Source: Nymphon striatum (Eukaryota). From it: 64,000 nt of DNA. Below, one piece after another: positions 26,104-59,814 of this stretch (within the stretch, counting starts at the first letter, position 1; each line of letters starts with the position of its first letter). Location of the stretch: positions 502,555-566,554 of the forward strand of contig JABFOP010000159.1 of the NCBI GenBank assembly GCA_016618385.1, read 5' to 3'. The notes beneath the pieces are model-generated. The model saw nothing but the letters and a program-made list of their open reading frames with translations, searched no databases and was not told the origin of the DNA. The position numbers and the translations under genes were made by a program.

Positions 26104-26380
26104 GTATTTACTAATTTATCTGAAAATTAAATATTTCTGAATATATGTTTGTATTTTGAGTGATTTTAATGTATGAGGCATATCCAGAAAGTAAGCTCCA
26201 TTTGCAAATATTGTTATTTCATTGCTGTTGCTATGATTATCCTAATGTGTGACAACTTTTTTAATCCTATTGTCCAACTACAATGCCATTTTAAAAAATT
26301 AGATCATGCTTTGACATTATTCTGCGTGTTCATCATGTTTTAAAAATTTAAATTGCCCTTCTGAGAAATACAGTCTGTTT

Positions 26381-27058: not shown

Positions 27059-27564
27059 ACATGTTATTTGTTTCATAGTTTCATGAATATGAAACCAGCA
27101 GGCGTTCATTCAGTAAGGTGTTTAGAGAAAATGCCACTAGTGAATCAATGGTAATGGTTATAATAATAATCATTATGGTTCGAATATTTGATTTTCATGG
27201 TCCTTCGCTGCTGGTAAACTCAATGATTTGTGATCGTTCATATACCTGATCTTGATTGACTCTCTTCAAAATCAAAGTTTGTGATCTAATACCTGAAGCA
27301 GGTTTCTTGCAATATTGTGGCGATAGTGAAACAACTATTTTGGAATGATTGGACTATATTTAACTGCTCTAAACCATTACTATCAATCGTTTTCGTAAAA
27401 AAAAAAACTACAAGTGTACTCAAACTTTTGAGCGGTAGTGTAGTTATGAGATAATTCAGAATATGAATATATAGTTAGTTAGAATTACGTGCTCGGCAAC
27501 AAATCCCTTGTATGAAGTCTGAATAATCTTTCCTTAATTATTGTACAGGCAGATTCATCCTGAT

Positions 27565-28300: not shown

Positions 28301-28394
28301 CTAGCCACTTTGTTTTATATTTAAAGTGTGTTCAGTCTGTGCATTTTCCTATGTCATAATTGTTCTCGATTTTAATTCTCGGTATGCATTTTAG

Positions 28395-28581
28395 GCTTGC
28401 ATGATGACATTTTATCCAGACTTCAAATGTCAACAGATAAAACCTCATGAAGTTCTGATTGTTATTGATGCATCAAATTCAATGAAGTTGGATGCATTTG
28501 AAAATGCTGTGAAGCTAAGTCTCCTTTGTTTGAGACTGCTTAGTTATTCAACATCATTTAATGTTGTTGCGTTTGGATCTG
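28395..28581 (+). CDS. PARP4: PARP4-like exon 16 (vWA domain; MIDAS-type DxSxS motif)
   Basis: The exon encodes ACMMTFYPDFKCQQIKPHEVLIVIDASNSMKLDAFENAVKLSLLCLRLLSYSTSFNVVAFGS. This aligns to the human ACMLVFQPDLDV..EVIICLDCSSSMEGVTFLQAKQIALHALSLVGEKQKVNIIQFGT. The acceptor is TTTTAG at 28389-28394. The exon ends in phase 1. Confidence 0.85.
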
Positions 28582-28672
28582 GTAATTATTTCAATTATAT
28601 CTATTCTAAGTAAATTTTTCTATTGAATTTGAAAATATATGATATGAACTTGGTATAAAACTTTCTTTTCAG

Positions 28673-28937
28673 TTTTTCATGAGCTATTTCCAAGACCACA
28701 GCTTTTAACGGACAAGAATCGTCTTTTAGCTGAAACATTTATTGGTTGCCTTGCACCAAATCTTGGAAATACTGATTTGTATCAAATTTTGAGGCCTAAC
28801 TACTTGCTTTTATCTACTTCTAGTCATATTAAAAACATATTCTTAATATCTGATGGCCATATCAATTGTCAAAAAGATATCTTGAACGATCTCAGAAAAG
28901 GAGACCTCAGATGTCGTTTCTTCACATTTGCTGTTGG
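28673..28937 (+). CDS. PARP4: PARP4-like exon 17 (vWA domain continuation)
   Basis: The exon encodes VFHELFPRPQLLTDKNRLLAETFIGCLAPNLGNTDLYQILRPNYLLLSTSSHIKNIFLISDGHINCQKDILNDLRKGDLRCRFFTFAVG. This aligns to the human YKELFSYPKHITSNTMAAEFIMSATPTMGNTDFWKTLRYL..RNILLVSDGHLQDE..TRLFACGIG. The exon ends in phase 2. Confidence 0.8.
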
Positions 28938-30635
28938 GTAAATTTGAAATTTATGATATATTATATACATGCCTGCTCAAATTCAAAATTTGCATGAACG
29001 GGAAAATGGTTATGCAAATATTTTTTGCAAAACTGATTATAGTTTGCATAACCATTTTTTTTTATGTGATGAAAACAACTATATTTCAATTTTTTTTTTT
29101 CTAGATCTCCAGATCTGGAGATATAGACGGGAGGCCTTTGCTCAGCAGTGGGCCTAGTATGGCCTCCAAATAGCCTCAATATCCTGATAATTTACTAATT
29201 GATCAATTTTATTTTTTTTTTTATTTTTAACACTCGTCCTAAGACGAGTTATATTTATTCAGAATAAAAAACATTTTACACAGAAACGTAAATATACTAT
29301 AACAGAAGGAAACAGAAAATACATATTTCATAAACTAAAATGTTAATGGATGGAGTTTATTGCATTTATTTCAAGTTATCAATGTAGATTAGCATTCTTT
29401 TTCTTTGTTGCTTCAGGAATATTAAAAAAAGTTTTAATTTTGTTGACTGTTCATTATATGGGCTCAGAATATGGTGGATATGTCCAGTTAAAACGGACAC
29501 CGATGGATGCAGTTGAGTATAAAAAGGTATATGTAGCTTTGGGCATTCGAATATTTCGTGGAAGGAATATTTAGTTGATCATTTCATTTACATATTCATA
29601 ATTTTTGTTAGAAGATAAAACAAAATAAAAACTACCAAATCTCAATTGACTTACAGAAGAAACAACACTTATTTTATTTTTTAAATTCAATTATTTTTTT
29701 CTTTTTCATTTTTTCTTTTTTATTAGTTGGTTTTTATATAAATTGGTTATGCTAAAATATTTTACTTAAAATATTTACGAAGCGCTCGTTCGTGCAATTT
29801 GACAAGCAGTGCTCAAATATAATGTGTTCTCAAAAGTGTGTGACTTTTTTCCTAGCAAGTTCATTATTATTAAGCCATTATTCAACTTGCTAAGATATTT
29901 ATTGTAATAAGGAATGTGTGTGTCAATGTGTTCCTTATCAATACTGATACCATAATTTTCAGAATTTGAAGCTTTTCATAGAATTTTTTTTCAAAATCCA
30001 CTTGACCTCAACAAGTGAGGTAAAACAACCTTAACCCTGTGGAGTCGCAAGTGACATATATGTCCCCTAGCCCTTTAGGTCGCAAGGGACATATATGGGC
30101 CAGAATCGGAGATCAACATTTTCATCAATTTTTTTCACTAAATCTGAACCGATCGGAATGAAACTTCACATAAATGAAGTTCAATAGTTTTTCGCACCCT
30201 GTGCAAAAAAACAGCCAAATCAAACTATGTTTTCACATTCTCGGACAGATCAAAAAACCATCTTACCATTCCGACAATTTCGCTTTTTATCCCAAAAACG
30301 CTGAACCGACTGTCCTCTAATAGAGTGCATGTGTTTTGAAATGAATAAAATAGCTTTGATTCCCTGAACCATAACCATAAATGAACGAATAAACACGACT
30401 TGCGTTTCTTTTGCTGTCGAGTATATATGTGAGACTGGTTGAGTCTTTAACATCGTGACTCTGGTGGCTGAAGGACCCAGGTTTGAATCTAGTTTGAGCC
30501 TTCCATTTATTCAGTCTTCACACATTGCACATTATGTTGTTTCCTTTCTTAATCAAATGCAGGAATAAATCAATAATTATTAGAATAAAATAGTTTCCTT
30601 CCTTATCATTAACCTTTCTATTTAAATGCCATCAG

Positions 30636-33144: not shown

Positions 33145-33331
33145 TTAATTCATGCTTTAGCTGCACGTGCCATATTAAGAGATTGGGAAGATGGTTTACT
33201 CTATGATGATGTGTCAGAAGAAATTCAAACTAAGAAGTTCATGCAAAAAGCCATTATAGATATGAGTATAGAACATTCCGTCTTATGTTCCCTGACCAGT
33301 TTCATTGCCATTGAGAGACGAGACAAGGCTT
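33145..33331 (+). CDS. PARP4: PARP4-like exon 21 (3' boundary uncertain)
   Basis: The exon encodes LIHALAARAILRDWEDGLLYDDVSEEIQTKKFMQKAIIDMSIEHSVLCSLTSFIAIERRDK. This aligns to the human MIHKLAARALIRDYEDGILHENETSHEMKKQTLKSLIIKLSKENSLITQFTSFVAVEKRDEN. The only GT after RRDK is at 33332, which gives phase 1. Confidence 0.65.
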
Positions 33332-33697
33332 GTATCTTAAACCAATTTTTACGAGATAAACTGACATCTTGTAAAATGTAAAATAAAGAAGCCAATCAAA
33401 TAAAATGTTTCGCCCGAATAGAATTGTATGGGTTTAAGGTCACATATGTAGATCATTTCATATACACCAGACAATCAAACTTGGTCTTACATTTTTTCAG
33501 CACTTTGAATAGGTGATCAATGGGGTCTGTCCACAATGTGTTCTGATGATAAGTGCCTTCCCAATCACAGAGTTGTTGTGTTCACTGATATGTTGGTGGA
33601 GGTTTCGGGTGGTGTACCGAACATAAAATTATGCACAATGCAGTGGTCATTGATAATGGGGAAGCTGGGCACAATGAATCAAAACCTAATGAGGGCA

Positions 33698-35215: not shown

Positions 35216-37258
35216 TCTATTTATGTTGTCGTAAATCCATGATGCTCCTGTCTTTATGCCTTCATACATTCTTTTCCTTGAGTGTGAAGTCCAATCTCGA
35301 TATGCAGCTAATTTACAAAGTTGTGTATTGTGCTATTTCACACATTAATTGATAATGCTTGATTCCTAAGCTTTATGCGTGAAGAAAATAGTTTTTAAGT
35401 TGTGCTAGATATTTCATATCTATTGCCACTTCCAGTTATGAGTGGGACAAATGTGTCCGGAGAAAATTCTAACATGATACAGGGGTTCCATTAGTTTTGA
35501 AAGTAGGAGGTAGTGGTATAGTGACGAGCGCAAGCGAGGCTAGAAAAAATGTTCTCCGTTGATACCAAAAAGAACTTTTTGAGTACTTAAATTATTAAAG
35601 TAATAACTGCTTTTATTGGATGCAGATTTGATTGCATGAGATTTTGAAGTGATTTATTTAACAATATCCTTCGTTACTTAATCAGTTAGTGGAGGGCGAC
35701 GGAGCAGGAAGCCATCAATTTGCTGGCTCATATAAGTTCCCATGTAAGATGGGGTAAAGGGGAGTGCAATAGCAAATATCAGATGTCAGAATTACTAAAA
35801 TTTAGTAGTGGTAGGGAGTTCAGTCACCAAGACCAATGTTTAAGAAATTGTGTTTAAAAGGAAAACAGCAGTTTAAGCATTCTTTTAAAAAAATAATGAA
35901 GTAAATCGCTCCACTGGATACAATTTTATAGCTAAATGAAGATTTCAATAATTGCTCTTTTTGAAGAAAATTCCCTCAAAAGACACAAGGGAAATGTATA
36001 GCCTAATTCAAAGACAATGGCACCAATTAGTGCCAGAAGGATCTGGCACTAACCATGTTGTATTTTCCCGCACAGGACAGATACGAAAACCAGGCAACTT
36101 CTACGACATTCTGCTGGGAATTTTGAAGAATTCTATATATAACACGATAGGTTTTGTGGTTCAAATTACAGGAGGATTAACACACGAAATAGGGTATCCC
36201 CGTAAAATGTTGCCTAATCATGGTGCCGTGTAGCGATCACGCGCGAAACATTTGCTCAGTTCAGATACAAAATTAAGCAACCCAAACACATCGTAGCTTA
36301 ACTAAACATATTTTATTTAAGATATACACATCTTCTTTATATCTAATCATAATATAAATGCTAAAAACTTTTTTTTTATGGGATAACTTGGCGCCTAAAA
36401 AATAGGTGTATATGAGAGATTCACCACCAATGTGATGCCATTAGGCTGGCTGACTGAACTCCCTAGTAGTGGTTATCACCGAATGTAAATAAACTGGCAA
36501 AACGCAAATGATGTCGCCAAATGGCATAAATCTCATAATATGTCATATCAGATGGTTAAATCGAAATTAGAATGAATTATCGTTTGTCAAGTTTAAAATG
36601 ATATGTGAAATCGATGGGGAAAAAGAATTTCGGACTTTTTTTTACAGTAAATATGGAATGTGAAATAGGTCCGATATCGGCTATCGAAAAACCCCTTTAC
36701 CCCTCCCCTTCATATAAAGATTTATAAGTATTTGTCCACATGATCTTTGAAGTCATTCATAGTTTTTGCCTCGATGGCCTTTCGTAATACTAGTATTACT
36801 CATTACGAAAAAGTATTTTTTTCTTTTACTTTTTTTTTAATGTGGAAGTAGACGGCTCTATTATTAAATATGGCGGCTATTTTAGCCGCTAGCCGCTTTT
36901 AAACGACATGTCTGTGATATATTCATTAGAACCAGTGAATAAGTGATGCATAATTTTATTGACTGAAATTTAAGAGTAAATCATTCTTCATAAACAACCA
37001 CATTATTTTAAATGTAGAAAAAAAGGAAAGTGTCAATATTTTTTGCTGTTTTATTTTTTCTGAATCTGTTAGTAAGTTAAATATTAAAAAAGTGACAGAA
37101 TTTGAATTTTTTATAAGAGATATTTTATTTGACTTCTCAAAATATTGACAGTGTTTGAATTGATGTTTAGATTATTATAAATGTAAAAATAAAAGATAAG
37201 TGGTTTTTGTGCTAATTCTATTAGATTTATGCAATTTTAAATTTACAGACTGATCAAG

Positions 37259-37416
37259 CTAAAAGTAGTAAACTCTTAATCGAAAGTCTGAAAGAAAACA
37301 TTGATATTTTACCATCAGTAGAATATGATGATGAGGAAATTTTAAGTCCCACACCAACAAGTATGGACCTTGGTGCTGGTGAGAGAAAAGATGAATCGGA
37401 CAGTGATGTTGATAAG
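37259..37416 (+). CDS. PARP4: PARP4-like exon 22 (5' boundary uncertain: acceptor 37248 or 37258)
   Basis: The exon encodes (TDQA)KSSKLLIESLKENIDILPSVEYDDEEILSPTPTSMDLGAGERKDESDSDVDK. This is an acidic segment colinear with the human ESPFPDIPKVSELIAKEDVDFLPYMS. The donor is GTATTT at 37417, phase 0. Confidence 0.5.
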
Positions 37417-39849: not shown

Positions 39850-40044
39850 TCCTCAAGCTCTTCAGAAGTAAGATCAAGATCTAGATCTAGATCTAGATCA
39901 AGTCAAAGACACACATCATCTTCAAGATCTAGATCACGATCGAGAACTAGTTGCAAATTTAAAAAAATGTCAACGCCTGTAGGTGTTCGGAAGAAGAAAG
40001 TAATAAAAAAGTCAAAAACTTCAAGATTTAGTCAAAATTATCAG
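39850..40044 (+). CDS. PARP4: PARP4-like exon 23 (RS-dipeptide / basic stretch)
   Basis: The acceptor is TCTAG at 39845-39849 and the donor GTATGT at 40045, both phase 0. The exon encodes SSSSSEVRSRSRSRSRSSQRHTSSSRSRSRSRTSCKFKKMSTPVGVRKKKVIKKSKTSRFSQNYQ. It is built on a (GATCTA)n microsatellite. It lies at the position of the human basic KRKHRKIPFSKRK segment. Confidence 0.5.
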
Positions 40045-40116
40045 GTATGTTGTTCATGCTCTGTTGTTCATTCAGCATTTAAATGTTTCCACCATAATTG
40101 TTCATATTTTTATCAG

Positions 40117-40168
40117 GATGACCAATCAATGCAGGTCTCAATTCAAGAACAAGGTGATTATAAAAGTA
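40117..40168 (+). CDS. PARP4: PARP4-like exon 24 (micro-exon)
   Basis: The acceptor is TATCAG at 40111-40116. The exon encodes DDQSMQVSIQEQGDYKS. A phase-1 donor GTAATT at 40169 is needed to match the following phase-1 exons. Confidence 0.4.
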
Positions 40169-41654: not shown

Positions 41655-41753
41655 ATGTCCAATCAAATACGGGCAACCAAAAAGAGAAAGCTGAATGGAT
41701 GAACGATGTGCACGATGAAAGTAGTGAAGATGACATGGGGTTCAGCATATTTG
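41655..41753 (+). CDS. PARP4: PARP4-like exon 25 (copy 1 of triplicated exon; SSEDDMGFSIFG)
   Basis: The phase-1 acceptor is TGATAG at 41649-41654. The exon encodes VQSNTGNQKEKAEWMNDVHDESSEDDMGFSIF. The donor is GTAGCA at 41754. The exon and its flanking intron are tandemly repeated at 41912 and 42155. Confidence 0.55.
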
Positions 41754-41911: not shown

Positions 41912-42016
41912 GTGACCCAATAGACGTGTGTGTTCAAAAAGAGAAAGCTGAATTGAAAGAAAAAAGAGTGCATGATGAAAGTAGTGAAGATGACATGGGG
42001 TTCGGCATATTTAGTG
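41912..42016 (+). CDS. PARP4: PARP4-like exon 26 (copy 2 of triplicated exon)
   Basis: The exon encodes GDPIDVCVQKEKAELKEKRVHDESSEDDMGFGIFS. The acceptor ATAATAG ends at 41911 and the donor GTATGT is at 42017, both phase 1. Confidence 0.5.
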
Positions 42017-42154: not shown

Positions 42155-42280
42155 ATGACCTATCAAATACAAATACTAGTATCCATAAAAAGAAAGCTGA
42201 ATTGAAAAAAAAAGCGATAGCAGCACAAACTATAGACGAAAAAAGTAGTGAAGAAGATATGGGGCTCGGCATATATCTTG
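42155..42280 (+). CDS. PARP4: PARP4-like exon 27 (copy 3 of triplicated exon)
   Basis: The exon encodes DDLSNTNTSIHKKKAELKKKAIAAQTIDEKSSEEDMGLGIYL. The acceptor TGATAG ends at 42154 and the donor GTATGT is at 42281, both phase 1. The upstream 135 bp of intron is about 95% identical to the intron before exon 25. Confidence 0.55.
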
Positions 42281-42599: not shown

Positions 42600-42671
42600 A
42601 TGAGGATGGTCACATTTCTAAATCTACTCCGGACATTGATGAATTTGTAGAAAAAGGCTCATCAAAGGCAT
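42600..42671 (+). CDS. PARP4: PARP4-like exon 28 (tentative)
   Basis: The phase-1 acceptor is ATACAG at 42594-42599. The exon encodes DEDGHISKSTPDIDEFVEKGSSK. The 3' end is unclear. A GT at 42672 gives phase 1, but the next exon I recognise needs phase 0, so intervening exons may exist. Confidence 0.35.
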
Positions 42672-43099: not shown

Positions 43100-43560
43100 T
43101 AAAACAAACTAGGTTTAACTCTTTCTTTTTCTTCTCGCCATATTCTCGCCAAGAGTGAATGGAAAGACTTGAAACTGTATGTGGCAAGGAATCGACATTT
43201 CCAAGGGACCCATCCACTTGCAGTATGGCAGAGGCAGGAGGATGCTGGGAGAGACGATTATGGAAACATTCTTAAGATTGTCCATCTTACAAGCATATAC
43301 CCCCTTAGTAATGCTGCCTGTGAGAGAGGCTTTTCTGTAATGAAAAGAGTGAAAAATGACTGGAGATGTTCACTAAACAATGAAGTTCTTGACCAGTTGT
43401 TGAGAATAAGCTTGACAGGCCCACAACTCGATGCATTCGACCCCACACCAGCAGTCAGAAGATGGTGGGTTAGTGGACAAAGAACCAAAAGACCAACAAC
43501 ATTGCCATATGGACCAAGGCATTAAGTATTATATGATATTAAGATAATCATGAGAAGGTT
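43100..43560 (+). mobile_element. hAT transposase C-terminal (hATC dimerisation) fragment, ZMYM1/Charlie-like
   Basis: ORF 43169-43525 encodes ..LSNAACERGFSVMKRVKNDWRCSLNNEVLDQLLRISLTGPQLDAFDPTPAVRRWW.. This matches the canonical hATC motif. No N-terminal transposase or TIRs were found, so it is a fragment. Confidence 0.6.
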
Positions 43561-45302: not shown

Positions 45303-45728
45303 TATTGCACTAAACTCACATGGGTTTATGGCAAGCTGGAAGCCGTTTCCATCCGACTGAGTGCAGTGCTTCTCTATTAGAACTACAAGCCATGGTGGGC
45401 GAGTCCTATTTCTCACACCGCAATCAATAATAGGCGTTCCTCGCAGGTGCTACACTCCACCGTGATCAACCTACTCTTTATTCGAATAGTGAAGTGTGTT
45501 CTTTAACGTGCAGAAGGTATGACTCTCCTTTACACAGGACCTCCATTTAACGTCCTATCTGAGGACGTAGTATTTTCTCTCTAAAACCAGCCTGCATCCA
45601 GTATCAGAGAGGACAGCAAAAGAATACACAACGTGAAGGGTGAAAAAGTGGTGGGGTTCGAATGGGATTCGAACCTGGGTCATTCAAGCCCAGAACAGAG
45701 ATCTTAACCACTCAGCCACCACGCTCTC
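45303..45728 (-). mobile_element. tRNA-derived SINE, near full-length copy
   Basis: The body starts GCACTAAACTCACATGGGTTTATGGCAAGCTGGAAGCCGTTTCCATCCGACTGAGTGCAGTG.... The right end is the reverse complement of a tRNA-like head (GAGCGTGGTGGCTGAGTGGTTAAGATCTCTGTTCTGGGCTTGAATGACCCAGGTTCGAATCCCATTCGAACCCC). Confidence 0.75.
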
Positions 45729-45834
45729 ACTCTGGACCGCTCTGGAATGAGTAGTGAAGTCATCGCTAATTATCAAAGGTTAATGGAGAATGAATCCTCT
45801 GCCTAGACTCTGACGACTTTTAATGAGTTATGCA

Positions 45835-46120
45835 GGTGCTCTACATTATCGGGACCTTCAACCCTACTATTGTTTGAATAGTTAAATGGGTTCTTTAATG
45901 TGCAGAGGGTGTGACTCCTCTACACGGGACACCTCCATTAACGTCCTATTTGAGGGCCGAAGTATTTTCTCTGTGGAACCAGCCTGCATCTGGTTCAAGA
46001 GGAAGGCATGATAATAATTGATATAAAAATGGGAGTTTTGATCAAGATTCGAATCCAGGTCAATTCGGCCCTACAACACACAAGTGGAAAGATGTTTTAT
46101 CCACTTGGCTACCCAGCCTT
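45835..46120 (-). mobile_element. second, divergent SINE copy immediately downstream
   Basis: It shares the SINE core GGGTTCTTTAATGTGCAGAGGGTGTGACTCCTCTACACGGGAC... but has a different tRNA-like head (..GATTCGAATCCAGGTCAATTCGGCCC..). Confidence 0.5.
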
Positions 46121-46951
46121 CTAGTTATGAAACTTACTACACAAATAATGTACATTCATGACGAAAATTTTCAAGTTTTATCATTTGCCTACATGCAGAC
46201 GAAAGAAAATAGATTTTTCCTGATGTTTCAAAACACTCTACCATAATACAATTTAAGATTATTTTTGGAGATGATCATTTTTATCTGTGATATTTGTATG
46301 ACCTTGAAAAAATTTACTAAGATTACTGTTTGCTGGTTCGTCAATTAATCTGTTTACTAATCATTTACCTAATTTCACTTAATCCTCACAAATTTATTTA
46401 TTTGACGAAGAGATCTTGAGAAGTGTCGTGGGAGGCCAAGTGGTTAGAGTGTTTGCATTCCAACTTCTCAAACATGGAGTAGTGGGTTTGAATTAGATGA
46501 CTTAGGTTAGACAGATAACCGAAATACCCCTTCCCACCCAAGGTATAAAACTGAAAATGTCTGATGTGGAAGATTTTAGTATAATGTAGTGGCAACAGAG
46601 AATCTGATATTGAGTGTACATAAAATTCCATTTCAACAATGCAACCCTTTTCCCCAGTAACCCTTCCCGAGCTTGCCTTCCATAATTAATGAGTTTGAAA
46701 ATAAGCTCCTGCATTGGGCTTATGGGGACAACAAAATCGTTATTTTAACTTTCCCTCCTAAATTACTTCTTAAATTTAAATATACAATTCATTTTCTTGC
46801 CTTAATTACTATTAATTCTCATATTTAAGATAGTTAATCATATGCTTGTATTTTTAATGAATTTTAGTAATTTTAATGGTTCACAACTGGGTGTGCAAAA
46901 CATTTTTTATGATTTTTTTCTCAAATCTATATATTTTTCTTCATTTTTCAG

Positions 46952-46992
46952 TCTGTTGAGAAGATTGGTGAATCAGCAAAAGTTAGCAGAAG
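46952..46992 (+). CDS. PARP4: PARP4-like exon 29 (tentative micro-exon)
   Basis: The acceptor is TTTTTCAG at 46944-46951 and the donor GTACAG at 46993. The exon encodes SVEKIGESAKVSR, which resembles the human GGVEKLLDLSWTES. Its phase-2 end matches the phase-2 acceptor of the following large exon. Confidence 0.35.
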
Positions 46993-48252: not shown

Positions 48253-51200
48253 AGTAATTTGAATTATAAACATTCAAGTTGCAAGTTTGCTTTCATTCTT
48301 ATCGAGATTAGTTAATAGTCTGAGATGTTTAATTTAAAATCCTTGATTTTATCCTCATTGATAGCTTTCTATTTATCTATTTATTTGAAATGCTCATTTC
48401 AAGATTTCATCCCTGAAGAAATTTCTCAAGTATTGAACATTGTTATCTAGCAGATAGCAGATTTTACATTCAAGTGAAGTGATATTAATTTGACTAGAAA
48501 ACTTTACCAGTGTCCAGACAGATTATTATTTTATTCTCAACTTGAACACAACCCATAAGTCCTTCACATATTTAATAAATGTCATTTAGAGAATGTTCAA
48601 ATAAATTATACACAGCATAGATTAGAACACGTACACGTATCTATTGCACGTGGTTTCTATTGACATATATATTTGTCTCACTCTATACTTTAATCATAGT
48701 TAGTAGAGGGGGACTGGTTTGGAAGGCCGGCGAACTTCAAAGGCGCTGCCCATTGTCAGGCGTTTGAGGTTGAAATGCACCATCATCTGGCTGAACCGTG
48801 CACAAGCAGAGCTTATTTTACACTAGTCAAGGCTGACATGAACGATTTGTTTTTCTTTGGAGACGATTTTGAAGCTATTCTCGACATTTTCGAAGGCGAA
48901 GAAGATATAGAGAATCAAAGGTCTTGCAATCAACTTGAACACGGTGTTTAAATTATTCAATTCCGATGTACATTCAGCAAGTTACAGCCTTTTTAAAGCT
49001 CACCAAAACAAAGTGGAAAAGTAACGGGCAATTCTACTTTTAAGTGTTCCTCAAATATTTAGGCTACACTCGAAATTTGTTCAAGTTCAAAAGTTGTATT
49101 TATAGAAGACATTAGGTCAAATTAATCAGTATAATTATAGGCTGATAACCACCTTGAGTACACATTCAAGAAGTCGAACAATAACCTATCCTTTTGTTGT
49201 CTTCCGGGCTCACAGGCAGTGCTCACAAGCTGGGCTTCGTAAACAGTCCACTGTCTGTCCCCTCTATTATCTCTGCTGAAGACTATTTTTTAGACTATTT
49301 CAAGTATTTGGTAATGTTGAAATGCAAATTGAATCTAAGTTGTTTTTAAATGTTTTTAAAAGCTATTTGTCGATTATGTGATAAAAAGATTATTAGACTC
49401 TTTCCAATTTGATATTAGATTTATTTATAAAACTCTCATATCAAATGAGAACTCGTTACCAGGGCACACACTCGCACTACAGCCAAGAATCGGCGTACTT
49501 TGCAAGTGCTGGTCACCGGGACCTTCCACCCTACTCTTTGTTCGAATAGCTTTTATGAAAAATAACAATTTTCACGAAGTATTTTATCTTCCACAATTTC
49601 TTATTTATGTTTTGTTTTTAAGGGTTTACAGTTAGCATGCTATTTTTCTATTCCAAATAAGATATTTGTGATTCCAATCAAACAATCCAAGTGATATAAA
49701 ATTAGGCCTTTGTCAGTTTCATTCATCTGTTGTCATGCACTGAGCTGTGGTGTCATCACGATAGCTTTGTATACAGTGTGACGTCATCTTTTTTTTTTTT
49801 AGCTTGTCACTGTGATTTTTAGCTACCTGTGATTTTTAAACCTCCCAAAAAGACCCCTCCCGCGCAAATTTTCCAAGTCATTTTTTGATTTTCAATAAAA
49901 ACATGTGTCTAAGTTTCAATTTATGACAATAAAAATATTGATGAAATGCCATTTCATAGGCATTTTAAGCATTATTTAAGACGGATGTAAATGGTTCAAG
50001 CATAGTTCAAGCTTGTAATGCTTGTGTGTAGACAAGTTTGTGCACAGTACTTCAGCTTTTCTGGGAATAAAATCGAACAATAACCTATTCTTTTGTTGTC
50101 AGGCAGGCTTCCCAACCATCTCCCTCTACTAACTATGCTTTAATCAAGCATACATGAGATTTGTCCACGGATCGACAGATTTCCGCTTTTTTAAAAGCTG
50201 TTGGGATAGTTCCTGAGATCTGCGCAGATCCGTGGAGAACAATTTTTTTTTTTGGAGGGGGAAGAATATCTGGGGATAAATGTATGTACCGTAACTTCGT
50301 ACGTCCAGCGCCATTTTAATTTTCAAGTTTTTTGCGTCGGCTGCCTTATAAGGTTAATTTCCAAGTAAAGATATTCAGCATTTCTACAAGTCAAGTCCAA
50401 AGTAGGTACAAATCCGATTGGTTCACATATGGTCACATGATGATGATGACAACACAATACATGGTTTTTCTTGTAAAAACATGTTCACACCTCAAACTGA
50501 AACTGAACTCTAAAATAAGCTTTAATAGAGAATTAGACATTAATAATTTTAATCTCCTTTAGCGTTTGTTTGGCATGGTTTGTACATTGAATAAAAATGA
50601 ACTGACAAAGGCGATAGACGTTGGAGTGAAAAACAGGTTCAACTAGGCATGGCTTGAGCATGCAGTTAGCATTTCTTTTCGACGGAAAGGTTGTAGAGTC
50701 GAATTTGAGAGATTGAATTGAGAAGATGTTTATTGTAATTGAAAGTCTTTTAGCATTATTTTCTTGTCTAAGTTGAGTTAAAATGGTCTCCTGTAAGGCG
50801 AAATGGCAAAAAAGAAATTCGCACCTAGGAGCCTAAGATGGCCCCCAGACCGGAAAATAACTTAGGCGAGCAGAGTGAGCGTGAATTTTTTTCCGCTTTT
50901 TTGATTATTTAGTCTGTCTCAGGTATGATCAAGGTGCATGTTATTTGTAACAAACTTACTATTTTTTGTTGTTTTCGTCACCTTTTTATATCATGGGTAT
51001 ACACAGGTATACTCACAGAGGATCAATTTCGGTGACAAACTGGTAATAATTTAACACACACGTCTTTGTCTCAAGAATTTTATTTGAATACTGAATAGAA
51101 CTTCACACCCTCCACCAAATTGTAGAGTACGTACTCGGTATAACAATGATACACCTTTGAACTTTGTGGCTTTTATTTCTTTAAACACACAATGAGTTCA

Positions 51201-51429
51201 CAAATATTAGATACATAGACTTAGACCTTTTGATCCTCCTCTTACTGACTGCATTTTTAAACTTTAACCGCAAGATCAAATAACAAGAAAAGCAAGGAAA
51301 ATAAAAGAAATCCATCTGGTCATTACGCTCCATCTTTCGACAGAAAACTAAACAAAACAATTAAAAATAATAAAATATAATATAATAACAATGGTTGTTA
51401 TATTATTAAAATAAATTTTGTTTTTGTAG

Positions 51430-52138
51430 TGTTCCAAGATTTCACAGAAACTATACAGCATTTCTTGATGAAAATGAGCAAACTGCAGATGAAGCTGGCC
51501 CTTCTGAATTTGCGCCACCAGTAGCAAATTTAGGCTTTGGAAGAGCATTTTCTGGGCAACAAAATACGTCTTCCCCACTTGCACCAGGATGTATCTCTGG
51601 AAGTAGACATCTTCAGCAAAGGATAGGATTTCGCTTTGGAGGTGAAGGTGACCCTTCTGAAGTTGCGCCACCGGCAACAAATTTGAGTTATGGAAATGCA
51701 TCTTTACCATCTGCATCAGGATTTAGCTTTGGAAGTGTTCCGAGTAATTTTGGTGCACCTGCTACAGGATTCAGCTTTGGAAGCGGACCTCCTCAACAAC
51801 AAGTTAATCTTGCTCAACCTGCATCAGGATTTAGTTTTGGAAGTGGACCTCCTCAACAACAAGTTAGTCTTGCTCAACCTGCATCAGGATTCAGCTTTGG
51901 AAGTGGACCTCCTCAGCAACAATTTAATCTTGCCCAATCTGCATCGGGATTTAGTTGTGGAGGAGAACCTCGCAACAAAGATTTATCCAAACAATCTGCT
52001 GCTGCTGGTCATCTGTTTGGTTCAAATCAAGCTTTCTCTGCAACTTCTAGTTTATTTCGAGGTCCCATGATTGGTTCTAATTCAGTTAGTGCTCCAAGAT
52101 TTCAAAATGAAAGTAGAGCATCTACTTCTTGCCGAAAA
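51430..52138 (+). CDS. PARP4: PARP4-like large repeat exon, part A (FG-like 20-aa repeats; this frame ends at TGA 52139-52141)
   Basis: The phase-2 acceptor is TTGTAG at 51424-51429. The exon encodes SVPRFHRNYTAFLDENEQTADEAGPSEFAPP...PASGFSFGSGPPQQQVNLAQPASGFSFGSGPPQQQVSLAQPASGFSFGSGPPQQQFNLAQ... It has 60-bp internal repeats. It corresponds to the low-complexity human FGSAAPP..QFSQGPVPG region. This frame reaches a stop inside the second copy of a 662-bp tandem duplication. Confidence 0.5.
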
Positions 52139-52141
52139 TGA

Positions 52142-52638
52142 GCAAACTGCAGATGAAGGTGGCCCTTCTGAAGTTGCGCCACCGGCAACAAATTTGGATT
52201 ATGGAAGTGCATTTCCTGGGCAACAAAATAAGTCTTCCCCACCTGCATCAGGATTTAGCTTTGGAAGTGTTCCGAGTAATTTTGGTGCACCTGCTACAGG
52301 ATTCAGCTTTGGAAGCGGACCTCCTCAACAACAACTTAATCTTGCTCAACCTGCATCAGGATTTAGTTTTTTTTTTCAAGATCCAATGATTGGTTCTAAT
52401 TCAGTTACTTTTGAGGATTTTCTTCCACCAGCACCACAATCAACAGAAAATCATCAGTTGCCACCAGGTTCACAAAGATCTTTATTCTTTTCAAAACATC
52501 ATCAGATAGAAGGAAGTGCTTCAATACAGCACAGGAAGGCTTTCTTTTCTGTTACCAGCTTTCTCTCAGATATTTTGAAATATATTAGTCAAAGATATGT
52601 GCAGGATGAATCAGTGAAGAAACTCTTTGTGACACACG
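52142..52638 (+). CDS. PARP4: PARP4-like large repeat exon, part B (second duplication copy, +1 frame relative to part A)
   Basis: The frame-0 reading encodes ENEQTADEGGPSEVAPPATNLDYGSAFPGQQNKSSPPASGFSFGSVPSNFGAPATGFSFGSGPPQQQLNLAQPASGFSFF..MIGSNSVTFEDFLPPAPQSTENHQLPPG...ISQRYVQDESVKKLFVTHG. The donor GTAAAT is at 52639. Joining part B to part A requires a frameshift, or an intron that I did not find. Confidence 0.45.
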
Positions 52639-52716
52639 GTAAATTTTTTCATTATTCATTATTTTTTCATTTACTGAATCTTTCACATATAGAAATATTT
52701 TTTCTTGTTTTATCAG

Positions 52717-52826
52717 GAATAAAGATCCCTGTCATGCAGACTAACATGAAATCTGCTGTTAACAATGATACTATTCATTGGAAAAGTGATAAAATAAAAG
52801 AATTCCTGGAAAATTTGTTGGAGAAT
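52717..52826 (+). CDS. PARP4: PARP4-like exon (C-terminal region)
   Basis: The phase-1 acceptor is TTATCAG at 52710-52716. The exon encodes GIKIPVMQTNMKSAVNNDTIHWKSDKIKEFLENLLEN. The donor is GTAAGT at 52827. Confidence 0.55.
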
Positions 52827-53460
52827 GTAAGTAATTTGATTTTATAGAAGTCATCTTTTCTGATTTTGGCTTTTTAAGTATACATAAGTATAAGTATAGT
52901 TTTTATATATTTTTTTTTTTTATGTATACATTTTGTATCAATTTTATATATATTCATTTTTTATGCATTTCTTGTTATTTTTATGGAACTAATTTAGAAT
53001 ATTTAATTACAATATACTCGTATTAAAAGACTTGAAAGCACAAAAAATCTCTTTCTAATGTTCTGATTCTATTTGGTTTCTTTCTAATTCTACTTTTCCT
53101 TTCATATTTTAATCTGATGATGGTAATAATTCGAGTTGTCGAAATATTATCCATAAACTTTATTTTAAAACATATTTTGTGTGTGATTTATATGATTTGG
53201 TCAGCTATGATCAGTTTTATAAAAGCATTAGATTTTCACAGGAAAAAAAGCAATTTTTCTAAAAGAATTTTGGGTGGGAGGGGGTAACTAATCCCCCCCC
53301 CAAGCCCTATGAAAGAAAAGAAAACCCCAGCTGATTTAATATTCTAGCTAACAATATGTGTGTTTCTCTTGAGTTTTTGTGTTATTTTGTTCCTTCTGCA
53401 TTAACATGGCTATATCTCAACAATTTAAATTTTGTTATTAAGGGTTATACTTTCTGTCAA

Positions 53461-53917
53461 ATTTTTTTTTTTTTTTTTTTTTTTTAAACCTTAGTGCACT
53501 AAACTCACATAGGTTTATAGGCAAGCTGGAGGCCGTTTCCATCCGACTGAATGCAGTGCTTCTCTGTTAGAACTACGAGCCATGGTGGGCGAGTTCTATT
53601 TCTCACACCGCAGTCAAGAATAGGTGTTCCTCGCAGGTGCTACACTTCACCGGGATCACCCTACTCTTTATTCGAATAGTGAAGTGTGTTCTTTAACATG
53701 CAGAGGGTGTGACTCTCCTTTACACGGGACCTCCATTTAATGTCTTATCCGAGGGACGGAGTATTTTCTCTCTAAAACCAGCCTGCATCCAGTATCAGAG
53801 AGGAGAGCACGAGAATACACAACGTAAAGGGTTAAAAAGTGGTGGGGTTCGAATGGGATTTGAACCTGGGTCATTCGAGCCCAGAACAGAGATCTTAACC
53901 ACTCAGCCACCGCGCTC
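53461..53917 (-). mobile_element. tRNA-derived SINE, full-length copy with 25-nt poly-T (a poly-A tail on the minus strand)
   Basis: T25 then AAACCTTAGTGCACTAAACTCACATAGGTTTATAGGCAAGCTGGAGGCCG...GGGTTCGAATGGGATTTGAACCTGGGTCATTCGAGCCCAGAACAGAGATCTTAACCACTCAGCCACCGCGCTC. It is about 93% identical to the copy at 45303. Confidence 0.8.
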
Positions 53918-54635
53918 CGTTAAATGATATATTTGCTGTACTAGCATGAAGAATTTTGAAAATATTTTATTCAAAAGCTTAGATATTGATTTTAAATGCT
54001 TGCCAATGAATTTTGGCAAATTAGCATTATGCTGTTCACGTTTTAGCTGTATTTTAGCAAATATATGCAGCTAGCAGTAGGGATTAGAATTGGCTATATT
54101 GTCAGTACACAGTTACCTTCTCCATCATCTACATTAGACAAAGATATGCTTTTCTATAAAATACTGTTATATAAATTCTTCTTTTGTTTCGGGAAAGTTT
54201 TGATTCATTACAAATCATTATGTACATCCATGGGGCAGGATTTTTGTCTTATGACCATTCTCCACTTGAAGCGGAACTAATTCTAAATTTAATGTAGAAA
54301 AAAATGTTTGTTTTATTTAACATCGAACAGGTGTTTCCATTTCCAATGCGAGTGCCGATTCAGAATGAATAGATTTTATGACGAATGGAAGTCAACAAAA
54401 TTCATGGAATTGTAGTAAAAACACAATTCTTTTTAAACTAGCTTCATTTTATCTACATCGACTACAAGTGGAAAACCACCATTAGAATAGACAATTTAAG
54501 ACTCGGTTTTGTTACGTAAATAATCCAGATTAATATATTTTTATTTAGGAATTCAAAATTATCTATACACTTTGTTGTTTCAGAAATTATTATTACAACT
54601 ATATTTTTTAAGCCTTTTTTTTCATATATTTCTAG

Positions 54636-54717
54636 GGAATTGCAATCATTGACCTTAATGAAGAACCCCTGAATGTTATCAATGAGAAACTGGTCTGTTC
54701 GGGCCTACATTCATTAG
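54636..54717 (+). CDS. PARP4: PARP4-like exon (C-terminal region)
   Basis: The acceptor is TTTCTAG at 54629-54635 and the donor GTAAGG at 54718. The exon encodes GIAIIDLNEEPLNVINEKLVCSGLHSL. Its phase-1 end matches the terminal exon. Confidence 0.5.
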
Positions 54718-55469
54718 GTAAGGAGAATTTCCAAAAATAGTTGACAAAATTAGTCTCATTCATGAATGTATTTCTCATGATATAAGGCATTGTTTCCAAA
54801 TTATGTACATATACTATATTTCCAAATAAGTTATTAAGTCCTTTCAACCTGGAATATGAAATTGCTTTTCAAACATTGTTTGTTTTGCAGTCCTTTCAAT
54901 GTGTTCAAAAGTAGTTTATAGTTTAGAAAATCCTTTGTCAGACCTTCTAAATTTATGAATTTGTTAGATTTATGAATCCTTGAATTTTTATTCATTTATA
55001 ATTCCCGGTGGCGAAAGAGTGAAAACTTCACTGCCTGCGTGATTCGCTCTGATTATTTTTGATACAAAAACATAGTACATGTAGCCGCGCCACTCCAACT
55101 CCTCGCAACCAACAAACCTGATTTTGAGTTTAGATCGACATCGACACACACCCCATCAGCCTGCTTAGTTCCGTATCACGGTTATTTCTAAAAACAAAAC
55201 TATACTACAAAAATATGTTAGCGAGGAAGCTACCAATACAGTTATCAGCAGATACCTTATCAGCAGGAATTACAGGATTCCGAACAACTAGGAATAATAT
55301 CAGAAATATTAGGTGCAGTGAGGTTGGTGACAGGATGAGATGTTCATTTCGGAGGCCGTCGAACAATCAACTGCAGCTGACTTGGTCATGTGGCAGTTGT
55401 GCTATTCTCTACTTTTGTATACCTTAAAGGTTAAATCAAATACAGCAAAATTGTATACTCATAATGACT

Positions 55470-56710
55470 GAGAGATCTGTGTAAGGCTGAGTGTAAAAAC
55501 TCTTGGTTGCTTCATGCTAAAGAGCTGGGTTTAAGCACCAGATTGGTTTGGGCCTCTATTGACTTGTTGGGAATTTCCTCACCCGACTTTTGAACACTCT
55601 GAATTGACGGTGGCAAAGAAAAAGAAACTCTAATTGTAGCAGATTTATCTCAAAATAAAATAGAAGTTTTACTCTCAACATTTTCTTTTCTTTTAATGCT
55701 CTTTCTTTGAATAATCTTTGTCATGTCATTTAATCTTTTAATCATATCAACATTATAGTTAAGATTTTTCTATTTCAAAATGTTTTTAGTACTAGTCCAT
55801 GGCCTTCGGCCAGGCTTATTTTATTTGTTGGTTAACAGATTTTTCCAGTGGAAACAAAGCATTGCCGGTAGAACTATAAATATAAATATAATTTTGGATT
55901 TCATATATTGGTAAAGGTTTTTGGAACAAGCGATCAAAATAAAAATATAAAGGTGATTCTCTACTTGAATTCTAATATCTAATTTTGCCTGATACTATGC
56001 CACGCATCATGCTTGCTTATTAGAGAACCCTTGCTTAGCCTTAAGTTAGAATGAGCCCCAAATTCTGTGCCTAATAATAGAGAGGCGGTAGTGGGCTCAT
56101 ACCGTGGCCCGTAGGCACAGCTGGTATCCCAACCGACGGCTTGAGCGTGGGGGTTTCTCTATCCTAGCGTGTTTGCTGCCATTGCTTAGTGTAAGGATGA
56201 CAACAATAATAATAATAACAATAATAATACTAATACTAATACAAATAACACCAATAATAATTGTCATCATATGGTCTATGGTCCTGGTCCGTCCTTCCCC
56301 TTATGGCTCGGCCATCCTGACCGCCCAGAGCAAACACTTCGTGTCAGCCCTTTTATGACTGATATGGTCTATCAACTTCCCCATCACTGACCGGAATGAA
56401 AGAGTTAGTGTGTCATTCTAATCAATTGTTTATTCATTGGAAATATTCGAACATACATGAATGGTAAGTATACCTTCAGGGGTGTGAAAACCCATTTCAA
56501 AAAACACGGCCTCCAACTTGCCATAAACCTATGTGAGTTTAGTGCAATGAAGGTTTAAAAAATATAAAAATAAAATATATATATATGAATAAAGTCGGGT
56601 GAGGAAATTTCCAACAAATCAATAGAGGCCCAAACCAATCTAGTGCTTAAACCCAGCTCTTTAGCATGAAGCAACCAAGAGTTTTTACACTCAGCCTTAT
56701 ACAGAATTCT
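55470..56710. mobile_element. TIR-bounded element (120-bp inverted repeats 55470-55590 / 56590-56710) enclosing (CAATAATAA)n-like microsatellite
   Basis: GATCTGTGTAAGGCTGAGTGTAAAAACTCTTGGTTGCTTCATGCTAAAGAGCTGGGTTTAAGCACCAG... is reverse-complemented at 56590-56710. The ORFs 55215-55427 (+) and 56555-56809 (-) are mirror artefacts of the repeat. A SINE 3' fragment lies at 56470-56570. Confidence 0.5.
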
Positions 56711-57646
56711 AGTTTGCCACAAGGTTACCCCCAATATATCGTACCTAGTGCCCATTATACACCTGGGTGGAGATAGGCAATCAAGGTTAACTGTCTTGCC
56801 CAAGAACACAAATAAAGATGTTCAAACACACGATTTGAACTAAGTCCAACGTCCAACCCTGCAGCTGCTGCACTACTTGCTTCTCGAAAGATGGAGAAAG
56901 AACACACCTGACTCAGGATATGAACTGGCGATCTTTTGATTGAAAGCTGGACCTGGAAACACTACATTACCCCCAGCTCCTTGGTCACCATATAGTCAAA
57001 ACTACTTGCTCTTTGTGAAAGATGTTACCCTGTTAACCATCTGAGAATGCACCAAACTAAAAGTAACTTTTTATTTGGCATCAAACATCACAGTAAGACT
57101 TCATTCTTCTTAATTACTGTTACTATCTGAATATATGTACTACAGAATAAATAATACTCATTAAAGGTGTTGAAAGTATCTTCTCCAAGGATGGCGTAGG
57201 CCTGCTATTTCCGTATTTCCATCTTCTCTGTCCCCAGTAGGCCTTTAATTCTGTGTATTGAGGCAAATAATAAAAAATTGTTTGTTTAGGGTAACCCGAC
57301 CGACCGTAAAAAATGGCCTGACTCATATTTTTTTTTCCAGCTTTTTTGAGTGAAATAATTTTATTTCCAACTGTTGCAAAAAACCAAATATTGTCTGGAA
57401 ATTATCGGTAATTTTCCCCCGCCATTGTTTGATTGAAGCGATGTAGGCCAATCTCACTCAAGTATCACAAGAGGAGGAAAAAAAAAAAAAAAAAAAAACG
57501 ACCGACCGACCGACCCACATTTTTCAAACTGGTCATGTTACCCTTAAACAAACATTTTTTTAAGGATGGCCCGACTAGTATTGACCCTTACAAGATTTGT
57601 GGTTGCATTTTTTTCAGTGTAGTTCCTCACAGTCTCTATGATTTAT

Positions 57647-57647
<1 letters not shown>

Positions 57648-57679
<32 letters not shown>

Positions 57680-57690
57680 TTCTCCTACTC
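57648..57690. repeat. (AAT)14 microsatellite in the last PARP4 intron
   Basis: TAATAATAATAATAATAATAATAATAATAAT lies directly upstream of the terminal-exon acceptor region. Confidence 0.8.
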
Positions 57691-57702
57691 CTTTGCTTTT
57701 AG

Positions 57703-58010
57703 GAAAAAAAGCTGAAGAAGAAATTACTACTCTAGTTTTGCTGATGTACATGACATTGAGCATCTTTTGTGATTCATTACCAGACCTGAAGAGTATTGTA
57801 ATTGAAAGTAGAAACTTACAAAGTTACATCAAAGTAATAGCAAACAGTTTGGTTTTGGAATATAAACGGAACAGCAGTAATAACACCATATTGAAGTCTT
57901 TACTGAGAATTGAACAGCTGAGAACACGCTATCCTGTTGCTTCACATACTTTGCAACTTGGTCACAATTGGGAAAGCTTCTGCTTTAGTTTGCTTTTTGA
58001 GAATTCATAA
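57703..58010 (+). CDS. PARP4: PARP4-like terminal exon (MVP/vault-interaction region; stop codon)
   Basis: The phase-1 acceptor is TTTTAG at 57697-57702. The exon encodes GKKAEEEITTLVLLMYMTLSIFCDSLPDLKSIVIESRNLQSYIKVIANSLVLEYKRNSSNNTILKSLLRIEQLRTRYPVASHTLQLGHNWESFCFSLLFENS*. This is colinear with the human KGRECLLDLIATMLVLQFIRTRLEKEG..RNIPWAFEAIKQASEWVRRTEGQYP. The stop TAA ends at 58010. Confidence 0.7.
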
Positions 58011-58643: not shown

Positions 58644-58928
58644 CACTTCACCGGGAATTGTCACCCTACTCTTGTTCGAATAGTGAAGTGGGTTCTTTAA
58701 CGTGTAGAGGGTATGGACTCTCCTTTACACGGGACCTCCATTTAACGTCCTATCCGAGGGACGGAGTATTTTCTCTCTAAAATCAGCCTACATCTAATAT
58801 CAGAGAGGAGAGTACGATAATACACAACGTAAACGGTGAAAAATGTGGCGGGGTTCGAATCAGATTCGAACCTGGGTCCTTCAGGCCCAGAATAACAATC
58901 TTAACCACTCAAGCCACCGCGTTCTCTC
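58644..58928 (-). mobile_element. tRNA-derived SINE, truncated copy abutting the LINE fragment
   Basis: ..CACTTCACCGGGAATTGTCACCCTACTCTTGTTCGAATAGTGAAGTGGGTTCTTTAACGTGTAGAGGG...GGGGTTCGAATCAGATTCGAACCTGGGTCCTTCAGGCCCAGAATAACAATCTTAACCACTCAAGCCACCGCG. Confidence 0.7.
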
Positions 58929-59814
58929 TGCTTTGGGCATGCTCATTAAAAATTTCAATCGTTTTTACATCAAATTTCTAGTTTCCTGACCAACTTTTGT
59001 TTCATGTTTTGCAGAACTATTTATTTCATTTCCAAATGACTGTACAATATTCAAGCATTTTTATTATATATTTTAAGAATATATTTACCCTAAGTGTCAT
59101 GTTAAAAATAGCATAATGTTATTGTTTTACAAATACCTTTGACCTGTAACTTCAGATCATATTTAGGACCGCATTCATTTCTAGTCTGTTTGGTAATGGC
59201 TGATTCTATTTGGTCACCATTTTTCTGTTCTATTAATGTAAATTATATGAAAATCATGTAGAATTTGATATTATATACATAATTATTAGAAATCTGTTTA
59301 ACCTTCATGTTTAATAAGGTTTATCAAAATTCTTAAACCTTTGTAAGGTTGTTCTGATTCAATTATTTGATAAACACGGTACATGTGTTACCAATTTGCT
59401 GTGATATTTTGAGAACAAATAATTCCTGTGTTATCATAACACAACTTTAATTGTTAAACACTTTATTTCTAGTTTTAATTTTATTATTTTGTTTATGTTC
59501 ATGTCTTAATATAGAAAAATGAATTTCTCTTTACACAAACATTGTATGTTTTGAATTTTCCAAATCTTGAATAATCTTTGAATAGATGGGGAGAAATAGG
59601 GTTGATCCAAGAGTCGACAAGAAAAATTGTCGAATTCAAAAAACAAGTTATGCATGCATATGAATGTTATAGAAAAGCAAGATATAAACTTAGCCTTAGA
59701 AAAGTCGAGCTAAGTAAATTCAAAATGACATCAAAAGAATCAGTTTTGTCCAATAAATGTAATGGTGCTTTTAATTTTGTTTTTTGATAAAATTGACAGA
59801 TGCTACGTATCCTA

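Follow-up and report, generated by a model that had tools for sequence, protein, structure and literature searches.

In a window of 64,000 nucleotides (nt) of Nymphon striatum DNA (contig JABFOP010000159.1, positions 502,555 to 566,554, forward strand; all coordinates below are positions within this window), the multi-exon gene on the + strand is PARP4 (vault PARP). The gene contains a large exon with phenylalanine-glycine (FG) repeats, in which a tandem duplication seems to break the reading frame. This frame break is quite plausibly only apparent: the second copy of the duplicated unit (copy 2) would begin an exon of its own at the duplication junction, in frame with the rest of the gene. 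Because copy 2 has its own acceptor and the frame of the downstream exons, the apparent break would be gone on splicing. This reading builds on the repeat anatomy, the reading frames, the splice site scores and the open exon chains described below, from which we infer which sites are used. The locus is a case of ordinary repeat evolution with a gene-structure twist.

Anatomy of the tandem duplication

The repeat copies, exons and splice sites described here all lie on the + strand. Copy 1 of the tandem unit was identified at 51427-52086 (660 nt). Its first 3 nt belong to the intron (TAG|TG), with the acceptor AG at 51428-51429, and it has a coding-like open reading frame (ORF) in frame 2 with a codon log-odds of +42.6 bits and eight FG motifs, four of which are FSFG. 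Copy 2 (52087-52407, 321 nt) is a diverged and shortened mosaic of copy 1, which is coding-like in frame 0 only and contains three FG motifs. Its first bases repeat the intron end (three bases) and the exon start found at copy 1, i.e. a duplicated TAG|TG, and the duplication junction (TTCAGTTA|GTGCTCC) shows a microhomology of 2 nt (TA). The sequence ENEQTADE(A/G)GPSE(F/V)APP is present in both copies. Copy 2 is followed by the unique 3′ part of the exon (52408-52638; TFEDFLPPAPQ...KKLFVTH), which is read in frame 0 and exits in phase 1 at the donor ACG|GTAAAT. The GT of this donor is located at 52639-52640, and the end of the exon, which had been set at 52640 with a start at 51430, is corrected to 52638.

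When the exon was compared with the window by blastn, 52148-52370 matched 51637-51838 (E 3e-76) and 52087-52268 matched 51427-51604 (E 1e-49). Matches of this strength are far from what chance would give, and no further copy of the large repeat was detected by blastn in the 64-kb window. The large tandem duplication of the original prediction is therefore real, but a unit of 662 nt could not be found, since copy 1 comprises 660 nt and copy 2, starting at 52087, 321 nt. Along copy 2, the register relative to copy 1 is not constant. The first 35 nt are offset by 660 nt (74% identity), 52126-52268 by 664 nt (87%), 52243-52370 by 532 nt (127 of 128 positions identical) and 52370-52407 by 319 nt (89%). 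Two stretches of copy 1, of 132 nt and 213 nt (both divisible by 3), are absent from copy 2, and a portion of copy 2 is closer to the second internal sub-repeat of copy 1 (51637-51701, 91%) than to the first. The coding part of copy 2 also contains a run of ten T at 52366-52375 (GFSFFFQDP), which is in frame as assembled and is an obvious spot for a length error or a polymorphism.

The predicted FG repeats of 20 amino acids (aa) with FSFG cores could clearly be observed in copy 1, where Tandem Repeats Finder detected a tandem array of 60-nt (20-aa) units at 51757-51951 (3.2 units, 89% matches). The units follow the pattern PA(T/S)GFSFGSGPPQQQ(V/F)(N/S)LAQ and read PATGFSFGSGPPQQQVNLAQ, PASGFSFGSGPPQQQVSLAQ and PASGFSFGSGPPQQQFNLAQ (units a-c), and the fourth unit after them is degenerate. 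In every pairwise comparison of units a-c, changes are seen at 4 of 14 synonymous sites and at 2 of 46 non-synonymous sites.

It had been suggested that the duplication is very recent or is an assembly expansion. In an assembly artefact, two haplotype versions would have been placed in tandem, or the array would have been mis-expanded or collapsed. The region is indeed repeat-rich and of low complexity, and one segment is identical at 127 of 128 positions. However, the other segments are 74-89% identical and are separated by the 132- and 213-nt gaps, which is far beyond allelic divergence and unlike an assembler duplicate, and the junction is clean, with only its 2-nt microhomology and free of any gap or N. 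The near-identity over the full length that marks a false duplication is not seen between these copies (74%, 87%, 99% and 89% by segment). We regard both an artefact and a very recent duplication as extremely unlikely.

The frame change and the +4 nt patch

Frame 2 is open at 51410-52138 and ends at a TGA (52139-52141), and frame 0 is open at 52071-52844, i.e. from 15 nt upstream of the duplication junction. Across 69 nt (52071-52139) both frames are open. This agrees with the earlier observation that the frame of copy 1 hits a TGA at 52139 and that the second copy is open in another frame. The cause of the break is, however, not a 662-nt unit that is no multiple of 3. The unit measures 660 nt, and the frame is kept across its junction; it is a patch with a net gain of 4 nt in the head of copy 2 that moves the reading from frame 2 to frame 0. 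This head (52090-52133) comprises 44 nt, compared to 40 nt in copy 1 (51430-51469), and reads LQDFKMKVEHLLLA in frame 0. The diverged patch of ~30 nt at 52105-52133 contains indels of +2, -2 and +4 relative to copy 1, and holds the only indel between the copies that is not a multiple of 3. Past the patch, frame 2 reads APRFQNESRASTSCRK before the TGA. A hairpin or template-switch origin of the patch was considered and rejected, as the 7-bp stem was not significant (z -1.4), and the codon log-odds of both heads were discarded as a frame test because the heads are too short to separate the frames.

The assembled sequence itself reads as a genuine frameshift. The locus would then be one exon with a real +4 nt patch, a fairly recent mutation or polymorphism, and the premature TGA at 52139 would result in a PARP4 without the C-terminal region or in nonsense-mediated decay. 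Judged by eye, the acceptor of copy 1 (51429) is typical of the gene, the protein sequence of the FG region changes rapidly in evolution (3 synonymous versus 9 non-synonymous differences in segment I), and mouse PARP4 knockouts are viable. However, the unique tail and the three downstream exons (about 243 codons) have kept open frames, matching phases and good splice sites. Therefore, a genuine frameshift would have to be young. The 10-26% divergence of most copy segments also stands against this model, as does the opening of frame 0 just upstream of the junction acceptors, which it would leave to coincidence. A genuine frameshift is considered unlikely.

A small error in the consensus, or the representation of a single haplotype, is less probable again. 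If the true sequence had one base fewer or two bases more within 52071-52139, both copies would form one ORF. The doubly open overlap holds short A runs (TTTCAAAATGAAAG, CGAAAATG), and every other indel between the copies is a multiple of 3. These runs, however, are merely 3-4 bases long, and the patch consists of clustered substitutions together with three separate indels (+2, -2 and +4), unlike a single homopolymer slip.

Candidate acceptors at the duplication junction and open exon chains

Splice sites were scored with a gene-specific position weight matrix (PWM) derived from the 18 accepted sites of the PARP4 gene. Two acceptor-like AGs were identified at the junction (52084-52089): AG 52084-52085 (aattcag|TTAG), which would give entry in phase 0, and AG 52088-52089 (tag|TG), which would give entry in phase 1, both into frame 0. 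Since frame 0 opens before the junction (52071), it includes both AGs and the head of copy 2. AG 52085 scored +3.4, which is above 10 of the 18 accepted acceptors and at the 98th percentile of 3,553 decoy AGs, and AG 52089 scored -0.4, above 3 of the 18. The copy-1 acceptor at 51429 scored -2.0, below both junction AGs.

Four exon chains in which an exon starts at 52086 or 52090 were tested, and all four were stop-free to the TAA at 58008, unlike read-through of both copies, which meets the premature stop at 52139. In these chains the new exon was reached from the upstream exons R3 or R4 (see below), as R4 to 52086, R4 with its GT donor to 52090, R3 to 52090, or R4 to 46952-46992, 51430-52007 and then 52090. 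A dynamic-programming search was run for the best phase-consistent chains from R3 to the terminal exon, with transposons masked and a minimum intron of 60 nt, and the new exon was always placed at 52086 or 52090. When allowed, the search also retained copy 1 as an exon, with its end at 52007 and an 82-nt intron after it. A first search without masking took in transposon ORFs and a 46-nt GC-AG intron, and was repeated with masking.

With the candidate 82-nt intron (52008-52089), copy 1, read in frame 2, would be left in phase 1 and joined to 52090. Alternatively, the putative donor 51863 (CAA|GTTAGT) could be used with 52085 (223 nt), or the putative donor 51744 (CGA|GTAATT) with 52089 (346 nt). 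The predicted junction peptides of the candidate spliced forms are ...SAAAVLQDFK, ...PPQQQLVLQDFK and ...GSSKLVLQDFK. Short introns of 72-98 nt occur in the PARP4 gene, and the length of each head suits its entry phase, with the 40-nt head of copy 1 corresponding to phase 2 and the 44-nt head of copy 2 to phase 1. The proposal that an intron removes part of the duplication thus belongs to the best-supported family of models, but the sites that it would use are predictions. A choice based on the generic splice consensus (donor 51642 or 51648 with acceptor 52251) was set aside, as the PWM scores were -7.3 for the acceptor and -5.5 and -0.2 for the respective donors.

Both copies would be translated almost fully if a cryptic mini-intron were present in the head of copy 2, for which 52085-52142 (58 nt), 52089-52152 (64 nt) and 52113-52251 (139 nt) were considered. 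These lengths are all 1 mod 3 and the products are stop-free. Moreover, the patch is the most diverged part and holds the sole indel that is not a multiple of 3, as in non-coding sequence. The acceptors at 52142, 52152 and 52251, however, scored -8.7, -18.0 and -7.3, under all 18 accepted acceptors, and the donors at 52085, 52089 and 52113 scored -3.1, -8.7 and -3.5. In addition, 58-64 nt is under the shortest intron seen in the gene (72 nt), and the G+C content is exon-like. Such a mini-intron is very unlikely.

Several points weigh against a new exon at the junction. The 18 accepted sites are a small base for the PWM, and the candidate donors within copy 1 are weak to moderate (-1.9 for 52008, +1.7 for 51863 and +2.4 for 51744). 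The G+C content of the candidate introns (0.38-0.43) is exon-like, compared to 0.18-0.31 in real short introns of the gene. As many as 463 GT-AG pairs restore the frame, so that the existence of one is not discriminating. The entry phase depends on the exons R4 and 46952-46992, both of which are predicted. Since the chain search rejects exons that contain a stop, it cannot weigh open chains against read-through, a frameshift or a consensus error. No relative of the FG exon was identified in any searched collection, and an exact 22-mer scan of metagenome contigs, in which the species is apparently absent, was empty. The high coding score of copy 1 is not independent evidence, because it was inherited from the duplication, and a skipped copy 1 with an intact ORF of 243 codons would need luck or gene conversion.

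The downstream C-terminal exons

An intron of 78 nt separates the FG exon from the next exon at 52717-52826 (phase 1-0). It is followed by a predicted exon at 54636-54717 (phase 0-1), the top-scoring candidate with the required phases when splice scores and codon log-odds were combined, and by a predicted terminal exon at 57703-58010 (entry phase 1), which ends with the stop TAA at 58008-58010. All phases agree from the exon end at 52638 through to this TAA.

For the unique part of the FG exon and the exon 52717-52826, no real relatives were found in 1.84 billion representative proteins; the match P0122 is an unrelated repeat protein. Relatives of the C-terminal exons were likewise not found in sequence searches that included the MINT region of human PARP4, and zero similarity to the human MINT/MVPID domain (1562-1724) was detected by phmmer and the other searches. 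The earlier description of these exons as conserved was therefore not upheld. A single-sequence AlphaFold2 model of the C-terminal exons was all-helical and unreliable, with a predicted local distance difference test (pLDDT) score of 36. The spliced sequence of 52717-58010 gave a weak collinear phmmer match to the macro domain of macroH2A (E 0.44), which extends across all three predicted exon junctions. A macro domain was nevertheless rejected, as this E value is weak, Pfam gave no support and the low-confidence model was all-helical; the match is probably spurious.

Proposed origin of the two exon-like units and possible fates of copy 1

The following course of events would account for the locus. 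In the disordered PARP4 linker, a large FG-repeat exon would have undergone a tandem duplication of its 5′ part, and the duplicated unit would have taken in the 3′ splice site of the exon. The copies would then have diverged by in-frame deletions and expansions, by patchy gene conversion and by the +4 nt change in the head of copy 2, and the locus would now act as two exon-like units rather than one exon. Copy 2 and the unique tail (52086 or 52090 to 52638) would start at a junction acceptor, in frame with the three downstream exons to the stop at 58008. In favour of this course, the bodies of both copies keep open frames and the two large indels (132 and 213 nt) are multiples of 3.

For copy 1, two fates can be envisaged. 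It may serve as an additional exon upstream, with phase-2 entry at 51430 and exit through the donor 52008, 51863 or 51744, or it may be skipped and persist as an intronic relic. A coding copy 1 is favoured by its intact ORF of 243 codons, by its codon signal of +42.6 bits and by the indels relative to copy 2, which are multiples of 3. The FG units moreover differ mostly at synonymous sites, and a path that delivers phase 2 exists via 46952-46992. Against it, the differences between units a and b are older than the last homogenisation, because copy 2 carries both variants. The phase-2 entry at 51430 assumed in the original prediction is possible, but hangs on the unproven 41-nt exon 46952-46992.

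A more far-reaching interpretation, possible but doubtful, is that a new short intron (52008-52089 or 51863-52085) arose at the duplication junction from sequence that used to be coding, with the 4-nt difference between the heads fitting the entry phase of each copy. This would be a rare observed birth of an intron and an exon by duplication of a 3′ splice site, in a vault PARP with a nucleoporin-type FSFG linker. If true, vault-bound PARP4 might use the FSFG linker to contact nuclear transport receptors or the nuclear pore.

Among known systems, the structural event is closest to tandem exon duplication and to the gain of introns by tandem duplication. The latter has been described for intragenic duplications (Rogers model; Hellsten et al., 2011, PMC3265369; potato RdRp case, PMC4974935). 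According to the classic model, one AGGT, present in both copies, supplies the donor as well as the acceptor, and exactly one unit is spliced out (PMC3265369, PMC4974935). The PARP4 locus shares with this model that an exonic duplication puts splice-site-like sequence inside former coding sequence, and that an intron between the copies would restore the frame. It differs in that the original 3′ splice site, now duplicated, or an AG close to it would provide the acceptor, and an unrelated GT in copy 1 would act as the donor. The AGGT of copy 2 at 52157-52160 has the copy-1 homologue AAGCTGG, in which the GT is absent, and the homologous AGGT pair 51648/52158 would provide a very poor acceptor (PWM -12.1).

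Tandem exon duplication in disordered regions involves cassettes of symmetric phase. Similarly, the PARP4 gene has three tandem phase 1-1 exons (R1-R3), and the exon 52090-52638 (549 nt) is also phase 1-1. In contrast to such cassettes, the duplicated unit bears the acceptor (TAG|TG at 51427-51431 and 52087-52091), but neither a duplicated donor nor an intervening intron. Therefore, any intron between the copies would have been recruited from former coding sequence.

If copy 2 begins its own exon, an annotation as one exon would wrongly mark PARP4 as frameshifted or truncated, and transcripts are needed before the gene is called a pseudogene. The locus illustrates the growth of a low-complexity linker exon by unequal duplication, and it may document a duplicated acceptor creating a new exon boundary.

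Identity and layout of the host gene

When the concatenated exons were searched against PDB chains with phmmer, human PARP4 was matched at E 8e-159 over human residues 295-1194. The first phmmer domain aligned residues 2-486 of the query, i.e. the PARP1-like helical regulatory region and the catalytic domain, with human residues 295-771 (E 5.8e-116), and the second and third domains aligned with 823-1006 and 1123-1194. Using tblastn with PARP4 fragments of other animals, the PARP catalytic exons were located at 12185-16480, the VIT exons at 18035-20445 and the VWA exons at 25969-28938, all upstream of the FG exon on the same strand. The last conserved ITIH-like segment, which corresponds to human residues 1123-1194, is at 33145-33340. 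The PARP4-type database matches bear Pfam PF00644 and were placed by tblastn at 13772-14307. The original identification of the gene as PARP4 is thus borne out. An ORF at about 5965-6100 is BRCT-like in appearance, judged by eye only, and the window as a whole is AT-rich eukaryotic DNA with 34% G+C.

The order of PARP1-homology region, catalytic domain, VIT, VWA and post-VWA segment is shared with human PARP4 (PDB 9bw6 and 9bw7; PARP4_HUMAN). For the human protein, a disordered region of >100 residues has been reported, and its C-terminal helical MVP-interacting domain begins at 1562-1570 (PMC10450202, PMC12280208). The FG exon is positioned between the last ITIH-like segment and the C-terminal exons, 3′ of the segment that resembles human 1123-1194, which supports the suggested position in the linker. 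A long disordered linker ahead of the C-terminal region is thus common to both proteins (PMC10450202, PMC12280208), but the FSFG repeats, the arginine-serine (RS) dipeptides and the triplicated acidic exons of the N. striatum linker were unmatched there in the searches run. The nearest database relative is encoded on an ENA contig of 2.4 Mb (L001:6538-15044). It is a PARP4 with very few introns, in which VIT and VWA are one ORF of 531 aa, whereas the PARP4 gene of the window stretches over >50 kb. It is colinear with the window gene only as far as the post-VWA segment, and the FG exon is absent within 6.5 kb.

Resemblance of the FG repeats to nucleoporins

Of the 218 aa of copy 1, 74% are G, S, P, Q, A, F or N, and the repeats have a period of 20 aa. 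With FG nucleoporins of the FxFG type (Nsp1/Nup153; Pfam Nucleoporin_FG and Nucleoporin_FG2) the exon shares FSFG cores ~20 residues apart, spacers rich in G, S, P, Q, A and N, and a disordered composition of low charge. It differs from them in having only 8 + 3 FG motifs, and its host protein is a vault enzyme without a pore-anchoring domain. No Pfam family was identified in either copy and no nucleoporin was present among the PDB chain matches. The translation of both copies gave a single weak database match (E 6e-4, 34% identity over 35% of the query), to a protein with Nucleoporin_FG domains. The proposed likeness to FG nucleoporins therefore holds for motif and composition, but does not extend to a Pfam match or a PDB nucleoporin, and it is compatible with convergence of low-complexity sequence. 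The region is treated here as a disordered FG-type linker with a putative function. A link between vaults and the nuclear pore has long been discussed, and FSFG repeats in a vault component, with a resemblance at the motif level only, may be a small lead towards it.

Upstream exons and mobile elements in the introns

Upstream of the FG exon, an exon at 37247-37416 (phase 1-0) is followed by an RS-rich exon at 39850-40044 (SEVRSRSRSRSRSSQRHTSSSRSRSRSR; phase 0-0), a 72-nt intron and a 37-nt exon at 40117-40153 (phase 0-1), which scored highest among the candidates of its gap. The RS exon is left in phase 0 and R1 is entered in phase 1, so that the phases 0-1 of this top candidate are exactly those needed, and this served to check the phase tracking. 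The RS-like arginine-serine tract of these exons (39850-40153) is unusual in a PARP4 linker. The tandem exons R1 (41655-41753), R2 (41912-42016) and R3 (42155-42280) are all of phase 1-1 and set the phase that is delivered towards the FG exon. They have lengths of 99, 105 and 126 nt and encode acidic modules that end in DESSEDDMGF(S/G)IFG-like motifs, and R1 and R3 have near-identical upstream intron sequence. With them, the disordered linker holds a second example of duplication at the exon level.

The best candidate in the 9-kb gap between R3 and the FG exon is R4 (42600-42667; phase 1-0), with an acceptor score of 7.2 and a GC donor (AAG|GCATGT) that scored 6.9. In an alternative form (42600-42671; phase 1-1), a weaker GT donor at 42672, 4 nt downstream, would be used. 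If R4 is spliced to 52086, the result would be a probable GC-AG intron of about 9.4 kb. A candidate exon of 41 nt at 46952-46992 (SVEKIGESAKVSR; phase 0-2) has the strongest acceptor-like site in the gap (9.1) and a donor score of -1.1, and no other candidate outside the transposon would deliver phase 2 to 51430.

The long intron also contains a DNA transposon (48689-50143), which is bounded by terminal inverted repeats of 25 nt (88% complementary) and is outside the PARP4 coding sequence. It has relatives on unrelated contigs and contains a tempting ORF at 48700-48943. A candidate exon X (48827-48943, supplying phase 2 or 1; 48827-48920 in its phase-1-to-2 form) was rejected, as it is the ORF start of this transposon. 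The ORF start (MNDLFFFGDDFEAILDIFEGEEDIE) has relatives on ENA metagenome contigs (52-76% identity in aa, 72% in DNA), one of which encodes an ORF of 318 aa with a sub-threshold match to the C-terminus of the P-element transposase. In the same long intron, a fragment of the C-terminal dimerisation region of a hAT transposase was identified at 43103-43522 (+) (PF05699, E 1.5e-4).

A short interspersed repeat is present in the PARP4 introns on both strands, at about 17778-17912, 45585-46121, 53697-53924 and 58745-58978. It translates to ...LLYTGPPFN..SEG.SIFSLKPACI.YQRGEHENTQRKG and has no Pfam match. Finally, long overlapping ORFs of 214, 175 and 110 aa (e.g. ...VVADDTDVFVLLLYYHH...), which have no Pfam match, were found in the intron between VIT and VWA at 23134-24405 (+), and this ORF cluster is probably a decayed transposon gene.

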